A program made the position numbers and the translations under genes. The notes below the pieces were generated by a model, which saw only the letters and a program-made list of their open reading frames with translations, made no database searches and had not been told where the DNA came from. 64,000 nucleotides of DNA from a phage: sequence record PZ445534.1; one strand, 5' to 3'. Of the stretch, positions 11,261 through 24,944 are shown piece by piece. The first letter of the stretch is position 1, and the number at the start of each line of letters is the position of its first letter.

Positions 11261-19276
<8,016 letters not shown>

Positions 19277-19278
19277 TA

Positions 19279-20427
19279 ATGGCAGTAGGTGAAATTCAAA
19301 TTAGTGCCTTGCCTCAAGCAGCCTTACCAATTGACCTTAGTGATATCTTCCATCTTAAACAGGGTATCGAGGATAAGAGATGCACTCTTGAGCAATTACT
19401 TGCTCCACACTCAAGCCTAAGAAATAACCCTCATGGTGTTACTAAGACACAAATTGGTTTAGATAACGTTATTAATGCTCTCCAGTTAGTTGCTGAAAAT
19501 AACTTATCAGACATTGTTAATGTAGCTGAGGCAAGAGCAAATCTACAGATTATGTCTTCAGAAGAGGTTAATAATCTTATTCAACAACATATTGATGATA
19601 AGAGCAACCCACACAATACCACTAAGGCACAGGTTGGGTTAAGTAATGTTCAGAACTGGGTGACATCTAACCTTTATAACGAGGATGCAGATAAGTATGC
19701 TACAGCAAGAGCAGTAAATAACTTGTACAAGGCTGTTCAGGCTTCTTATCCAGTAGGTACTATCCATCTCTCTATGAATCCTGCAAACCCTTCTACATAT
19801 TTAATTTGTGGAGGTACTTGGGAGTTAGTTTCAAAAGGAAGAGCACTTGTAGGTTATGATAGTGCTTCTAGGCCAGTTGGCTCAACGTTTGGTTCGCAGA
19901 CTACTGCACTGACAGTTAACAACATTCCTGCACATACTCACTCAGTATACATCACTGGTGGTGGTCACACACACGGTGCAACGGCCTCTGTCAGTGCTTT
20001 TGACTACGGTACTAAAGGGACTACAACGTTTGACTATGGAACAAAGACTGTATCTACTTATGACTATGGTAACAGAACAACCAGTGCTGCTGGTTTAACA
20101 CAAACAACATTCATTAATCGTGGTTATGCTGATGGTGGTTGGAGAGGTTTATCAGTTGAGGGGGCAAGCTATGACCCAAGAGCTACGCTGACAACAGCTA
20201 ACAACCACACTCACTCTGTAGCAATTGGTGCGCATAATCACACAGTTGGTATTGGTGCTCACAGTCATTCTGTTGCAATTGGCTCCCACAACCACTCAGC
20301 AACAGTAACAGTAACCGGAGCAGGTGAGCATTCGCACTCTGGCACAACTGGCACAACTGGTTCTGGTCAAGCATTTAGCGTTGAACAGCCATCCTTCGTA
20401 TTGTATGTATGGCAGAGAACAGCTTAA
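19279..20427 (+). CDS. tail fibre protein with His-x-His repeat C-terminal domain
   Basis: 382 aa; duplicated NPH(G/N)xTK(T/A)Q(I/V)GL motif; C-terminal HTHSV / [24 protein letters not shown] repeats. Confidence 0.7.
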   Translation: MAVGEIQISALPQAALPIDLSDIFHLKQGIEDKRCTLEQLLAPHSSLRNNPHGVTKTQIGLDNVINALQLVAENNLSDIVNVAEARANLQIMSSEEVNNLIQQHIDDKSNPHNTTKAQVGLSNVQNWVTSNLYNEDADKYATARAVNNLYKAVQASYPVGTIHLSMNPANPSTYLICGGTWELVSKGRALVGYDSASRPVGSTFGSQTTALTVNNIPAHTHSVYITGGGHTHGATASVSAFDYGTKGTTTFDYGTKTVSTYDYGNRTTSAAGLTQTTFINRGYADGGWRGLSVEGASYDPRATLTTANNHTHSVAIGAHNHTVGIGAHSHSVAIGSHNHSATVTVTGAGEHSHSGTTGTTGSGQAFSVEQPSFVLYVWQRTA

Positions 20428-20437
20428 TTTCTTTACA

Positions 20438-20457
20438 GGGGCTTTATAGCCCCTTTT
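20438..20457 (+). terminator. rho-independent terminator
   Basis: GGGGCT-ttat-AGCCCC hairpin followed by TTTT. Confidence 0.5.
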
Positions 20458-20473
20458 AAGAGGAAAATTTATA

Positions 20474-22816
20474 ATGGCAGATTACAAGTTGAGTGAATTA
20501 AACTCAATTGATACAATTCGTTCAGACGACCTTCTTCATGTCAGGGTTAAAAAGAGACCTGAAATGCTGGGTGATGAAGACCGTCGAATGACCTATCAAG
20601 ATTTCTTAGCATCTTTTAAACTAGAAAGGTTTGTTCAGATTGCTGGTAGCACTATGACTGGTGACTTAGGGATTGTTAAGTTACTTTATGGTGGTAAGGC
20701 AATCTTTGACCCAACAGGCTCTTCTGAGATTACTATTGGGGATGTTTTAAAGACTTTTAAAATCAACGCAAATGGCCTTAAACTAACTATTGCAGATGCT
20801 TCAAGGTCGGCAACTGTTTATCATACTCTGAATAAGCCAAGTCCTAATGAACTTGGGATGAGAACTAATGAAGAGAATGATGCAAGATACTCAAGATTAG
20901 CTGCAAATAACACCTTTAGAGGTACTCAAGCTATTCTCTCTGATAATGAAGCCCTCATTGTTAAGAATATTACACAAGGGATGCCACTCTATATTCGTGG
21001 TCAAGATGCAGATGGCACTAACAGATGGTATCTAGGCAATGATAATAAAGGCACAGACAACCTTGTTTTAAAAAACGTTAAATATGGTGCATACGTAGCG
21101 ATTTTAGCTAACCTAATCTCTGTGAATAAATCAATTCAAATCAATGGTCAAGTTCAACCTTCTGACTTCTCTAACTTAGATGCTAGATACTTTACTCAGA
21201 CAGCAGCTAATCAGAGATTTGCGCAGCTAGTTGGTAATAACACATTCAGTGGTTTAAACACATTCAACCAACTAAGTGTTTTCAAAAAAGATGGTGAAGC
21301 AATTAGGCTACAGAATGCCAATGCTGCACAACCATTGTACATTAAGGCGATTGATAGCACAGGTGTCAACAGATGGTACATTGGTAATAGTAACGAAGGT
21401 GATAACGTAGCTCTAGAAAACTACAAAACTAGTGGCAAGATTACTGTAGGGACAAGTGTTAATATCAATAAAACACTAACTGTAACTGGTCAAGTTCAAC
21501 CTTCTGACTGGACTAACATTGACTCTCGTTATGTTCTTATCGGTTCATACGCAAATCTTGCTAAGAAGAATGAAGCTAACACATTCACTTTACAGCAGAA
21601 TATTCAATCTGATGGTGAAGCATTAAGAATCTACAGCAAGGCTCAGAATAATTCTTCTTACATTGTTGGTAAGAATACTGATAACACAAATAAGTGGTTT
21701 ATCGGTTGTGGTACTAATGGTTCTGGTACGGCATCATTCCATAACTACTTGACTGGTGCAAGAATTGATTTAGCTGACGAAATTCTTCTGTCTAAATCTC
21801 TACAGATTACTGGACAGGTAAAACCTTCTGATTGGGGTAACTTGGATGCAAGGTACTTCACGCAGACAGCAGCTAACTCAAGATTCATGTTGGCATCAAA
21901 TACTGGTCAGTACACTGCTACAGACTGGAATGCTGTCCCTTGGGATGCTAAAACAGGGCTGTACAACATCATGAATGGTGGTGGTTCGCAGATGATTTTC
22001 CACATGTATCAAGCAGTTGGTTCATGTCGTTCTGCACAACTACGTTTTAACTACAAAAATGGTGGAATGTTTTACAGGTCGTCAAGGGATGGTTTTGGTT
22101 TTGAAGCAGATTGGTCTAAGATTTATACAGAAGCACAGAAACCAACCCCTTCAGAGCTTGGTGCATACACTAAAGCTGAAACTGACCAGAAGATTGCACA
22201 GGCAGTAAGTGACTCTACAGACCTTAACAAAATCTATCCAGTGGGTATTGTGACGTGGTTTAACAGTAATGTTAACCCTAATACAGCACTGCCTGGTCTA
22301 ACTTGGACGTATCTGAACAATGGTGTTGGTAGAACTATCAGAATTGCAGCAGCAAACGGTTCAGATGTTGCTACAACTGGTGGTTCAGACTCTGTGACGT
22401 TAGCTGTTGGGAACTTGCCTTCACACACTCACAGTTTTTCTGCGACTACCTCATCGTTTGACTACGGAACAAAAAACACTAACACGACTGGTGCTCACAC
22501 ACACTCTGTAAGTGGCTCTACTTCATCTGCTGGTAACCACAACCATTCCATTTCGTGGATTGGTCAGAACTCTACACACTACTCTGGTGGTGGTGGTGGT
22601 AAAATCGGTACAGGTCCGGGTTACACTGATGCTGCTGGTGCGCACACCCACTCTGTAAGTGGTACTGCTGGTTCTGCTGGTAACCACGCTCACAGTGTTG
22701 GTATTGGTGCTCACAGTCATACAGTTAGTGGTAACACTGGTGGTACAGGTTCTGGTTCCGCATTTAGTGTTACTAACCAGTTCTATAAGTTAATGGCTTG
22801 GGTAAGAACTGCTTAA
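20474..22816 (+). CDS. long tail fibre protein with three internal tandem repeats and His-x-His C-terminal domain
   Basis: 780 aa; three ~110 aa repeats each carrying GQV(Q/K)PSD(F/W)xN(L/I)D(A/S)RY; C-terminal GAHTHSVSG...NHNHS...[17 protein letters not shown]; C-terminus resembles that of 19279 ORF. Confidence 0.75.
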
Positions 22817-22895: not shown

Positions 22896-23093
22896 ATGCC
22901 TACAATCCTAGCAATTCTTCTAAAAAATCTAGGTAGCTTCTTCTGGAAACTCATTTTATCCCTTCTAAGTGAATACATGATTGAGAAAGTGTTCTTTAAG
23001 CTTGCAAGATACCTTGCGAGTAAAACAGACACACCTATTGATGATGAGTTCGTAGATAACTTAGAAAAAGCTTTTAAGGGGGAGAATAAATGA
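22896..23093 (+). CDS. small hydrophobic protein
   Basis: 65 aa, hydrophobic N-terminus. Confidence 0.3.
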   Translation: MPTILAILLKNLGSFFWKLILSLLSEYMIEKVFFKLARYLASKTDTPIDDEFVDNLEKAFKGENK

Positions 23094-23461
23094 AGTGGCT
23101 AGAGGAAGCTTTTAAAAACAATATTGGTGCAATTGTTGTTGGTATTTTTAGTGTTATTGGGATGTATACCACTATGCAAGTTTCAAGTGGTAAGCAAGAA
23201 GTGTCTGTCACAACAAAGTTACAGCAGCTAGATAATTATTCCAAAAGTAACTATTCAGCTATTCGTGATTTACAGTCTGACATGAGACTGATTCAGCTAG
23301 GGATGGAGAACCAGAAAGTTCAGTTAGAGAATGTTAAGGGTGAAAACGCAAAACTCACCAAAACTCTTGATAAATTCTCTGACAGTGTGAACAATCTGGC
23401 TCAATCAGTATCAGCCCTCCAAGCTATTACTGAAAAGAACACAAAGAATACTGAAAAATAA
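23090..23461 (+). CDS. membrane-anchored coiled-coil protein
   Basis: 123 aa; N-terminal TM helix (IGAIVVGIFSVIGMY) then coiled coil. Confidence 0.35.
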   Translation: MKWLEEAFKNNIGAIVVGIFSVIGMYTTMQVSSGKQEVSVTTKLQQLDNYSKSNYSAIRDLQSDMRLIQLGMENQKVQLENVKGENAKLTKTLDKFSDSVNNLAQSVSALQAITEKNTKNTEK

Positions 23462-23497: not shown

Positions 23498-24397
23498 TTA
23501 CTTACCTACTGACAAAGGTGCTTCAATCTTTCCTGCATGTTGGTAGTTGCTAATACCACCAATAAAATCACTTGCGGTAAGGTGTTTTAGGTCACTTAGT
23601 GTGTTAAGCTGCACACCAATCTCAAAAGTAGGTGCATGGAACTCTTTATTGTTCATCAGTTCATAAACCTGCTTCATATGGTTCTGATAAATCTGAGTAT
23701 CTCCAAAGACACCTATCAAGTATCGTGGAGTATACCCAGTCATCTTGCAAAGAACTTCCAGAATAAAGCCATAGGATGCAATGTTAAACGGAAGTCCTAA
23801 AAAGGTGTCTACAGAACGTTGATACCATTGTAAATCAACTTCACCCTCATTAGTAATGTAAATCTGAAACAGAACATGACAAGGTGCTAAAGCCATCGAG
23901 TTGGCTGCAATATCTGCTGCATTCCAAGCATTAACAAGCATGTAACGGTCTGTGATATCACCTTTCATCTTCGTTACTAAGGTCTCTAACTGGTCTACAA
24001 CACAACCATTATGACCTTCAAAGTTTCTCCACTGAACCCCGTAGATTCTTCCACCTGCATCTTCTAACCAGTCTTGCTCAGAGGAATAGCTAGAGCTTAA
24101 CCAGCGTTTAAAATCATCTGACCAGATAGTCCAACGTTCCCCATCATTTTCACCCCAAGTACGGTAACGGAGTTCACCAAGTTTATTCTCACCGTTCAGG
24201 AACCATAAAGCTTCCCCAATAACTTGCCGTGTAAACACCTGTTTAGATGTTAAGAGTGGGAAACCAGTACGCATATCAAAACGAAATTTTGGTGGAGCAA
24301 AAGCAGAGATAACATCTCCAGTTCGTGTAGTACGCAGTTCACCAACTGATAAAACATGGTTCAGGATATTTTTGTAGCTTGTATCTGCTTGTGACAT
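23498..24397 (-). CDS. thyA: thymidylate synthase
   Basis: 299 aa; overall resemblance to ThyA family as recalled; adjacent to DHFR as in T4 frd-td. Confidence 0.8.
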   Translation of the reverse strand: MSQADTSYKNILNHVLSVGELRTTRTGDVISAFAPPKFRFDMRTGFPLLTSKQVFTRQVIGEALWFLNGENKLGELRYRTWGENDGERWTIWSDDFKRWLSSSYSSEQDWLEDAGGRIYGVQWRNFEGHNGCVVDQLETLVTKMKGDITDRYMLVNAWNAADIAANSMALAPCHVLFQIYITNEGEVDLQWYQRSVDTFLGLPFNIASYGFILEVLCKMTGYTPRYLIGVFGDTQIYQNHMKQVYELMNNKEFHAPTFEIGVQLNTLSDLKHLTASDFIGGISNYQHAGKIEAPLSVGK

Positions 24398-24398
24398 A

Positions 24399-24944
24399 TT
24401 AAAAGTGCCCTTTTACTTGTGGAACATAAATTTCAAAGGTTGCTTTACCATCCTCTGATGGTTTTGACTGTACCTTTGTAAATACACGGTTATCATACAG
24501 CTTCTCAAAGAAGTTTTCAAAAGGTAAATGCACAGTGGCCTCTTCAGTAACTTTATGGAAAACAGTATGGAACACCACACTAGCATATGGTAAAGCGTTG
24601 ACAAGGATACCTGCACCACCAATTACAAAGATATCTTCATCAATAGAGCTATCAAGATACTTCAAAAATGCTCCAAATGACTCTTTACTGGCTTTAGCAT
24701 ACATTACATCATCTTTGCCAAAGTCTATGCCTAAGTATGGTACAGAATTTGTTAAGATGAGGTTTGCACGTTCTGGTAAAGGTTTACTACCCAGAGTCTT
24801 AAAAGTCTCATTACCCATGACTACTAAGTTATTTTTAGTGAGTCTCTTAAACTCTTGCATGTCCTGTTTATGTCGAGGCCACGGCATACCAGTCGGTGTA
24901 CCAAATTCACCGTTTTCACCACTTGCAAATATTAGTTTAATCAT
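24399..24944 (-). CDS. frd: dihydrofolate reductase
   Basis: 181 aa; N-terminal IFASGENGEFG...MPWP DHFR-like signature; coupled to thyA. Confidence 0.75.
   Translation of the reverse strand: MIKLIFASGENGEFGTPTGMPWPRHKQDMQEFKRLTKNNLVVMGNETFKTLGSKPLPERANLILTNSVPYLGIDFGKDDVMYAKASKESFGAFLKYLDSSIDEDIFVIGGAGILVNALPYASVVFHTVFHKVTEEATVHLPFENFFEKLYDNRVFTKVQSKPSEDGKATFEIYVPQVKGHF

Follow-up and report, generated by a model that had tools for sequence, protein, structure and literature searches.

The window analysed here is a 64,000-nt (64-kb) stretch of sequence record PZ445534.1, part of the ~87-kb genome of a Felix O1-like myovirus (Ounavirinae, Felixounavirus). It contains two adjacent open reading frames (ORFs) on the + strand, 19279-20427 (382 amino acids, aa) and 20474-22816 (780 aa), which lie exactly where the initial annotation of the sequence had placed them and contain all of the peptide strings that it quoted. 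With considerable confidence, we identify them as the short tail fibre (STF) and the long tail fibre (LTF) of a Felix O1-like E. coli myovirus, with tips of the T4 gp37 type carrying His-x-His (HxH) motifs, conserved ends, and exchangeable cassettes formed by the repeats and the fifth domain of the LTF. The two-fibre architecture with T4 gp37-like HxH tips is already known for Felix O1-like phages from sequence (2015) and cryo-electron microscopy (cryo-EM; 2025), and the window adds new alleles only.

Fibre tips and their relation to T4 gp37

The two genes and the parts outside the LTF shaft are as follows.
19279-20427, + strand: STF gene, 382 aa (ORF; phrog_2097 tail fibre, E=3e-127)
19279-19413 (approximate bounds), + strand: putative STF N-terminal baseplate-binding region with EDKRCT (weak similarity to LTF 33-153; parallels to the Sf14 motif)
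19705-19932, + strand: STF collar, gp10_C-like (PF21939, E=3e-17; T4 gp10 and gp37 alignments; AlphaFold2 predicted local distance difference test (pLDDT) 87-92)
19933-20064, + strand: STF ascending needle strand with two HxH (aa 219, 230) and three F/YDYG(T/N)(K/R) repeats (T4 gp37 alignment)
20065-20205 (approximate bounds), + strand: STF head (turn), the part most divergent between STF alleles (homologue alignment; pLDDT <50)
20206-20337, + strand: STF descending needle strand with five HxH (aa 310, 319, 328, 337, 351; aligned to T4 966-1000)
20338-20424, + strand: STF C-terminal strand back to the collar, ending in GSGQAFSVEQPSFVLYVWQRTA (conserved in homologues; aligned to the T4 gp37 C-terminus)
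20474-22816, + strand: LTF gene, 780 aa (ORF; phrog_4277 over 1-780 of 780)
20474-20893, + strand: LTF conserved N-terminus, comprising a putative baseplate-binding region (EDRRMT) and the first beta domain (conservation; modelled beta strands at aa 84-106)
22220-22423, + strand: LTF collar (PF21939; 97-99% conserved; aligned to the T4 gp37 collar)
22424-22549, + strand: LTF ascending needle strand with HxH at aa 651, 675, 689 (motif scan, T4 alignment)
22550-22639, + strand: LTF head, putative receptor contact (at the chain turn in the T4 alignment)
22640-22726, + strand: LTF descending needle strand with HxH at aa 724, 738, 747 (motif scan, T4 alignment; Pfam PF03335 Phage_fiber repeat)
22727-22813, + strand: LTF C-terminal strand back to the collar (97-99% conserved; aligned to the T4 gp37 C-terminus)

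Judged by sequence, the receptor-binding tip of T4 gp37 has true homologues in both C-termini. A phmmer search against PDB sequences matched 2XGF with STF 146-352 (E=2.9e-14) and LTF 649-759 (E=7.7e-14), HxH aligning on HxH, and the family profiles matched the same entry with E=1.4e-31 (STF, 75 homologues) and 9.4e-20 (LTF, 85 homologues). The needle resemblance drawn from the motifs in the initial annotation is thereby borne out as far as gp37 is concerned. The T4 gp37 tip (2XGF, residues 811-1026) has a homologous collar, HxH needle, and C-terminal return strand, and has the FDYGTK and GIGAHxHxV boxes in common with the window; the collar also matches the T4 gp10 C-terminal domain (PF21939). 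The similarity of the two C-termini to each other, likewise noted initially, was recovered as a relationship of the C-terminal halves (STF 66-382 and LTF 486-780; 30% identity over 339 columns, E=2e-28).

The dense C-terminal HxH motifs were confirmed in both fibres. The STF has seven (aa 219, 230, 310, 319, 328, 337, 351), where 5000 shuffled sequences averaged 0.96 and reached 6 at most, and the LTF has six (aa 651, 675, 689, 724, 738, 747), where shuffling gave 0.34 on average and never more than 3. All 12 motif histidines of the LTF are invariant in 85 sequences, which argues for a ligand role, and six HxH are present in 119 of 120 LTF homologues. In the STF, H219, H221, H337, and H339 are invariant in 75 sequences and most of the remaining motif histidines are at least 90% conserved; W378 and R380 are also invariant across homologues. 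Tandem Repeats Finder detected a 27-nt (9-aa) unit of 3.4 copies at 20206-20297, in the descending strand of the STF. The number of HxH ranges from 6 to 11 across Ounavirinae STF clusters, and STF tip alleles with 7 and 9 motifs diverge between the FDYGTK and IGxHxH motifs.

The arrangement of the motifs was compared with that of T4 gp37, in which they are found at 883, 915, 929, 966, 980, 989, and 998 (spacings 32-14-37-14-9-9; alignment to residues 811-1026). The LTF motifs, three ascending and three descending, are spaced 24-14-35-14-9 and are colinear with those of T4, so that six of the seven T4 sites have counterparts and the last T4 site has none. The STF has two ascending and five descending motifs with three F/YDYG repeats between them, and four motifs align in STF, LTF, and T4. 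The window fibres differ from T4 gp37 in that the LTF lacks the seventh site, the STF has its 2/5 layout, and the heads are unrelated. Furthermore, four proteins make up the T4 fibre, with gp37 as its distal piece, while the tip is here fused to a single-protein fibre. In T4 the assembly factor gp38 is encoded directly 3' of gp37; a tblastn search for a gp38 homologue in the 64-kb window found none (best E=0.19), and the ORFs downstream of the LTF belong to phrog_402 and phrog_4038, with function unassigned or given as 'holin' in annotations.

By homology, each fibre would be a homotrimer with its conserved N-terminus on the baseplate; by analogy with phage Bas63, wedge 2 would carry the STF and the 100-aa platform protein the LTF. 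The chain would run from the collar up the needle, turn in the small head, and run back down, a reversal that in a trimer would give a six-stranded beta needle. Each HxH contributed by three chains would form one His6 metal site (Fe2+ in T4), seven in the STF and six in the LTF, stapling the needle. Receptor contact is likely made by the head at the turn, and the lipopolysaccharide (LPS) core would be the receptor by analogy with K-12-infecting relatives.

This picture agrees with published accounts of related phages. Both fibre C-termini of VpaE1 were described as homologous to the T4 gp37 adhesin in 2015, with a highly variable middle of the long fibre and the LPS core as the receptor (Viruses, PMC4690856). 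In Bas63 (Escherichia phage JohannRWettstein; gp26 STF and gp27 LTF; known here by its published description), the available text of the cryo-EM study (Sci Adv 2025) describes collar, needle, and head tips in both fibres, seven HxH in the STF and six in the LTF, a comparison with the iron-binding needle of T4, an LTF of 'five beta-helix repeat domains' with helix-turn linkers, and attachment of the short fibre at wedge 2 (PMC12609058). Bas63 belongs to the same genus and, as far as the description goes, has the same gene order (gp23-gp27), the same 7/6 motif numbers, and a five-domain shaft; the alleles differ, as shown by HHxH at 692-695 in Bas63 and NHNH at 688-691 in the window. For Sf14 (Commun Biol 2025), the accessible part of the report describes a pair of fibres in a retracted state, whose shaft resembles T7 gp17 and Mu in parts and whose tip resembles T4 gp37, and notes the absence of homologues of the Mu chaperone (PMC11821841). 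Sf14 gp52/gp53 (Mooglevirus) and vB_EcoM_VpaE1 gp74/gp75 are likewise pairs of ~390 and ~790 aa with an ED(R/K)x(C/M)T N-terminal motif.

Two short sequences shared by the fibres were also observed. An N-terminal ED(K/R)R(C/M)T motif is common to both (EDKRCT, STF aa 29-34, 19363-19380; EDRRMT, LTF aa 35-40, 20576-20593); the Sf14 authors, in the text available, discuss the same ED(R/K)xCT / EDRxMT pair in terms of disulfide-mediated or other baseplate attachment (PMC11821841). The longest exact DNA match between the two genes is 24 nt (20247-20270 = 22699-22722; GTTGGTATTGGTGCTCACAGTCAT, coding VGIGAHSH) in proteins that are 30% identical overall. Strong constraint may explain this match, as may a small gene conversion event involving the two tips.

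Shaft repeats and cassette exchange

The part of the LTF between the conserved N-terminus and the collar comprises four further domains.
20894-21235, + strand: repeat R1, aa 141-254 (PF20744, repeat-unit hidden Markov model (HMM), mosaic map; variable body ~20899-21138, conserved junction 21139-21258)
21236-21577, + strand: repeat R2, aa 255-368 (PF20744, repeat-unit HMM, mosaic map; variable body ~21259-21498)
21578-21901, + strand: repeat R3, aa 369-476 (PF20744, repeat-unit HMM, mosaic map; variable body ends ~21824 at GQVKPSD (21812))
21902-22219, + strand: fifth domain, Mu S / P2 H type (Pfam gp37_C, PF12604, E=6e-18; 8JU3, E=3e-27)

The three tandem ~110-aa repeats of the initial annotation correspond to three matches of PF20744 (gp37_trimer; E=3e-63, 210.3 bits against a gathering threshold of 21.7). 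The GQV(Q/K)PSD motif starts at nt 21146, 21488, and 21812, in agreement with the positions first given (about 21143, 21481, and 21811). As a repeat marker this motif holds for all three units, while the other proposed marker, NRWY, is NKWFIGC in the third. The description of the units as near-identical DNA blocks did not hold: R1-R3 share 31-47% protein identity and 58-62% DNA identity over whole units, identity rises to 69-72% in a core of 65 nt, and exact common runs reach 23 nt at most. The ~330-nt period was not detected by Tandem Repeats Finder, whose only find was the 27-nt HxH unit of the STF, because the repeats are too diverged. A BLASTP comparison of the whole LTF with itself returned the identity match only, and the repeats were therefore excised and modelled separately. 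With the repeat-unit HMM, no fourth sequence-detectable repeat was found in the LTF and none in the STF.

The AlphaFold2 model of the LTF has five beta-rich shaft domains with short helices between them, of which domains 2-4 are the paralogous PF20744 repeats and domain 5 is a domain of the Mu S / P2 H type. Foldseek searches with the model retrieved the Mu tail fibre 8JU3 (E=4e-8), Mu 5YVQ, an R2 pyocin fibre, and T7 gp17, and the repeat region retrieved the T4 gp34 rod (4UXG/5NXH; E=3e-6 to 4e-5, ~420 columns). R3 also weakly matches a C-terminal fragment of T7 gp17 by sequence (4A0T/4A0U; E=3e-4, or 3e-6 with a profile), a stretch which we take to be the pyramid domain. The kinship of the LTF shaft with the T4 gp34 rod, T7 gp17, and the Mu fibre is at the level of fold or domain, with 12-30% identity. 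The fifth domain is more closely defined, as LTF aa 475-575 match Mu protein S by sequence (8JU3, E=2.6e-27; chain residues ~327-427 of 488) and PF12604 scores 65.3 bits against a gathering threshold of 22.5. The S domain of Mu has a position close to the fibre's distal end; in the LTF the S-type domain is internal and is followed by the gp37-type tip.

The fibre stretch (3.5 kb; best identity 94%) is the least conserved part of the window, whose structural module is ~97% identical to phages dune and ekra and whose first 25 kb show 96.5-97.5% identity with the E. coli phages dune, ekra, and LNA1. At the DNA level, the STF gene shares 97-100% identity with genes annotated as tail fibres in E. 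coli felixounaviruses including JK55, momo, and allfine (97% protein identity to P0121), and the nearest LTF homologues (phage ekra, P0001) are 91-92% identical. Sliding DNA identity of the LTF gene against nine relatives gave a sharply mosaic picture. Identity is 90-100% in the N-terminus (20474-20898), at the junctions, and over the collar and needle (22159-22816); the R1 body (~20899-21138), the R2 body (~21259-21498), the R3 body (to ~21824), and the fifth domain (~21859-22158) are each either 95-100% or 40-55% identical and switch independently from phage to phage. Breakpoints cluster on the 3' side at GQVxPSD and on the 5' side just past xRY..NTF. In SUSP2 (Suspvirus), R3 (21499-21858) is 85-97% identical to the window, with ~70-90% for the conserved segments and 30-57% for R1 and R2. 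That R3 alone stands above the background indicates that one repeat cassette was recently exchanged between the genera.

The same pattern was seen in 121 proteins, consisting of the window LTF and its 120 best homologues (753-796 aa). Clustering at the 80% level gave 16, 17, 17, and 23 alleles for R1, R2, R3, and the fifth domain, respectively, and a single allele for the N-terminus, which shows 92-99% identity over the 120 homologues. The 121 proteins contain 79 distinct cassette combinations, the correlations of distances between slots are r=0 to 0.3, and the common R2 and R3 alleles are found in all four possible pairings. Between R1 and R3, 71 cross-position pairs have at least 70% identity (top 86%), indicating a common allele pool from which R2 (maximum 57% identity) stands apart. 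The fifth domain is the most variable segment of the LTF, with its 23 alleles in 121 proteins, and acts as a slot for whole-domain swaps. The window allele is rare, being matched at 90% identity or more in 2 of 120 homologues, and the slot (window 21851-22198) is occupied by domains of ~105 and ~155 aa in JK55 (L002:2873-3220) and momo (L007:2873-3370), respectively. These alternative domains have no Pfam or PDB sequence match, so that the fifth slot takes unannotated domains.

The repeat bodies and the fifth domain are thus independently assorting cassettes, and it is at the conserved junctions that phages exchange segments, now and then out of register. Swapping would take place by homologous recombination at the GQVxPSD...xRY...NTF junctions between co-infecting Ounavirinae, with the N-terminus, collar, and needle conserved. 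Cassette assortment and the copy-number variants described below are not described in the available text of the published Bas63 and Sf14 structural accounts, which do mention sequence variation of the shaft, and the main text of the PhageMaP preprint on Bas63 gene essentiality is silent on these fibres. Tetart, Desplats and Krisch reportedly found, in J Mol Biol in 1998, recombination between conserved 'His boxes' in T-even gp37 and gp38. Those genes likewise have short conserved motifs flanking variable segments, serving as exchange points that reshuffle fibre parts; the LTF differs from them in that its clearest exchange points are the junctions of the 110-aa repeats (GQVxPSD, xRY..NTF) and not His boxes.

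Repeat number, isolation host, and alternative readings

Exactly three repeats are present in 121/121 of the closest LTFs and also in 14/14 GenBank relatives (Felixounavirus, Suspvirus, and Mooglevirus). The LTFs of 795-847 aa were considered as repeat-number variants and rejected, as all have three repeats; the extra length of JK55 (795 aa), momo (843 aa), Mushroom (839 aa), and HY02 (847 aa) is accounted for by another fifth domain or by enlargement of the head. When 1.84 billion representative proteins were searched exhaustively with a profile, two exceptions emerged.
L012:6001-9048 (Logan SRR22802239 contig 169): LTF P0241, 1015 aa, five repeats, of an uncultured Ounavirinae-like phage
L013:6001-8706 (ENA ERZ28599557 scaffold 93): LTF P0242, four repeats, 901 aa as called, the start probably being called too late, of an uncultured Ounavirinae-like phage

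Both contigs are phage-sized (77 and 87 kb), the loci are fully syntenic with the window, and the flanking genes are ~70-72% identical to those of the window. The repeats within each protein are mutually divergent (18-62% aa identity) and are therefore not assembly artefacts of identical repeats. These fibres could speak for the 110-aa repeats being a contingency locus, in which unequal recombination often alters copy number and, with it, fibre length and host range. In P0241 the J2-type junction occurs three times, which looks like a tandem expansion, and the common R1/R3 alleles imply out-of-register exchange. We nevertheless regard a contingency locus as very improbable, and for this genus it is already largely refuted. 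Besides the constant three repeats and the origin of the length variants in domain 5 or the head, the low DNA identity of the units (58-62%, with no exact common run beyond 23 nt) argues against it, and the Bas63 authors, in the available text, saw repeat domains varying in sequence and not in number among the felixounaviruses of the International Committee on Taxonomy of Viruses (ICTV) that they compared (PMC12609058). The rare four- and five-repeat LTFs come from outside that species set as described there. Copy number is therefore fixed in the genus, plausibly because fibre length must fit the tail, and is not fixed across the subfamily. The proposal in the initial annotation that the repeats are substrates for recombination thus stands for the junction breakpoints and the R1/R3 allele pool and fails for copy number in close relatives; the variation among relatives that it expected is absent from the genus and appears, as four or five copies, in two rare ~70%-identical Ounavirinae lineages.

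The initial annotation also tied the repeats to host range, a connection of which the few phages compared give no sign. Among them, it is the LTF head and the type of STF tip that follow the isolation host, and phages of one and the same K-12 host differ freely in their rod cassettes. Identity of the LTF head is 90% or more in the four K-12 isolates compared, among them SUSP2 of another genus, and 21-29% in phages of Salmonella (Mushroom, BPS15Q2), Shigella (Sf13), Citrobacter (Michonne), and O157 (HY02). The LTFs of HY02 and Sf13, the latter a Mooglevirus phage related to Sf14, have only four HxH and a much larger head. A 382-aa STF is found in the window and in 9/9 relatives whose isolation host was a laboratory E. 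coli (a K-12 derivative or E. coli C). Its HxH number is seven in ekra and SUSP2 (the two counted), as in the window, and nine, in proteins of 388-402 aa, in the five phages of other hosts; Mooglevirus STFs have nine where the window has seven. These results favour the heads as receptor determinants, as in T4.

A different distribution of roles would place host specificity mainly in lateral binding sites of the rod cassettes and domain 5, leaving the HxH tip to serve only as a structural cap or to bind the LPS core generically. Variability is indeed highest in the rod bodies and domain 5, whose median identity to the window is 0.36-0.60 (tip, 0.90-0.99); part of the Mu tail fibre protein S is a homologue of domain 5; and receptor contacts proximal to the tip were raised as an idea by the Sf14 authors in the available part of their report (PMC11821841). 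Host-challenge mutations in the LTF of a Salmonella felixounavirus, at aa 497 and 534, fall in domain 5 and not in the tip, which keeps a role for this domain possible. On the other hand, phages of the same K-12 host differ in rod and domain-5 alleles and share one head, while in phages from other hosts both the head and the type of STF tip are different; moreover, it is the head of the homologous T4 tip that contacts the receptor, as stated in the accessible text of the Bas63 paper (PMC12609058). Lateral binding as the main determinant is therefore considered unlikely, with some weight left to it.

The nature of the needle sites was considered separately. The HxH ladders may bind a metal other than iron or stabilise the needle in a metal-free form. 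In T4 gp12, the His6 site is occupied by Zn. The identity of a metal is unreadable from sequence, the STF layout is unlike that of T4 gp37, and the accessible literature on Ounavirinae reports neither side-chain nor metal density for the fibres. The strong colinear homology is nonetheless to gp37, whose di-histidine motifs act as ligands of Fe ions according to the available text of the Bas63 paper (PMC12609058), and we rate a non-iron or metal-free needle as improbable.

Several observations weigh against the proposed reading of the two fibres as gp37-type trimers with receptor-binding heads. The structure prediction suggested in the initial annotation was uninformative for the tips as monomers. 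The AlphaFold2 model of the STF (75-sequence alignment) has a mean pLDDT of 64.6, with a good collar, 35-70 in the needle and head, and <50 in the head; that of the LTF (85 sequences) has a mean of 53 and ~30 in the tip and is informative for the shaft only, probably because the tip columns are near-invariant and the fold is an intertwined trimer. A Foldseek search of the PDB with the STF monomer model did not retrieve 2XGF and gave only weak matches to the gp10 collar and C24. The ascending strand of the STF, with its two HxH, departs from the T4 layout, which makes the exact number of occupied sites uncertain. In the Bas63 cryo-EM map the fibre density was too poor for side-chain placement, according to the text available (PMC12609058). 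Given the poor monomer models, the needle fold, the trimer state, and metal binding are inferred from homology and the published Bas63 domain fit. Finally, the host correlation comprises a handful of phages and uses isolation host rather than measured receptors, and the domain-5 mutations mentioned above lie outside the tip. The gp37-type reading, with conserved ends and exchangeable shaft cassettes, remains the one that we prefer.

Genomic setting and implications

Upstream of the fibre genes, the window contains three baseplate-associated genes.
16645-18114, + strand: baseplate wedge 2, 489 aa (Pfam PF04865, Baseplate_J-like, E=3.5e-16; phrog_6; length and order as Bas63 gp23)
18117-18974, + strand: baseplate wedge 1, 285 aa (phrog_4017 baseplate protein, E=8e-175; weak DUF2612/Phage_Wedge1 match; length as Bas63 gp24)
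18974-19276, + strand: 100-aa protein, putative long-fibre platform, equivalent to Bas63 gp25 (phrog_4141; between wedge 1 and STF)

The order wedge 2 (~489 aa), wedge 1 (~285 aa), ~100-aa platform, STF (~380-400 aa), and LTF (~780-800 aa) is present in the window, in 14/14 GenBank relatives, and in the two metagenomic contigs compared. From synteny with Bas63 and all fetched relatives, the 100-aa protein would be an LTF platform like Bas63 gp25.

Two small overlapping ORFs lie 3' of the LTF gene (22896-23093 and 23090-23461). The first encodes 65 aa with a hydrophobic N-terminus and belongs to phrog_402, homologues of which match PF26925 (Phage_PM2_Gpl); its homologue in phage JLBYU32 is labelled 'L-fuculose phosphate aldolase', almost certainly a mis-annotation. 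The second encodes 123 aa (phrog_4038), is annotated as 'holin' in relatives, and has a weak Rz-like spanin match. A block of genes on the opposite strand begins directly past this fibre/holin module (23498-24397, - strand; 24399-24944, - strand), and the GC skew flips sign at its start. Its first genes are thymidylate synthase and dihydrofolate reductase according to the annotation of relatives and to Pfam matches in the contigs L012 and L013. ARAGORN found no tRNA genes in the 64-kb window, so that any tRNA genes must be located in the part of the genome beyond it; 22 tRNAs are reported in the published abstract on the Felix O1 genome. Felix O1-like fibre genes also occur under the labels Staphylococcus phage SA1 (GU169904), two 'Campylobacter' phages, and Methanobrevibacter gottschalkii (protein P0105). 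These records are probably contaminated or mislabelled.

The fibre pair itself is of an ordinary, well-described kind, and the cassette map and the rare four- and five-repeat fibres are modest additions. It is a speculative and rather unlikely idea that the shaft may be a combinatorial cassette system and not a passive spacer, having four slots with 16-23 strongly diverged alleles each, a pool common to R1 and R3, unrelated domains in slot 5, and four to five units in some uncultured Ounavirinae. If the cassettes carry lateral glycan-binding sites or tune the reach of the fibre to the thickness of O-antigen or capsule, the shaft would contribute to natural host range besides the HxH tip. The four- and five-repeat long fibres indicate that shaft length is not absolutely fixed in the subfamily.

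The map of fibre segments could be useful for host-range engineering of Felix O1-like phages. It separates a scaffold, comprising the N-terminus, junctions, collar, and needle, from the exchangeable segments, namely the three repeat bodies, domain 5, and the head, with the natural breakpoints mapped. That the head and the STF tip type, and not the rod, track the isolation host in the phages compared could likewise be useful for engineering the host range of this group.

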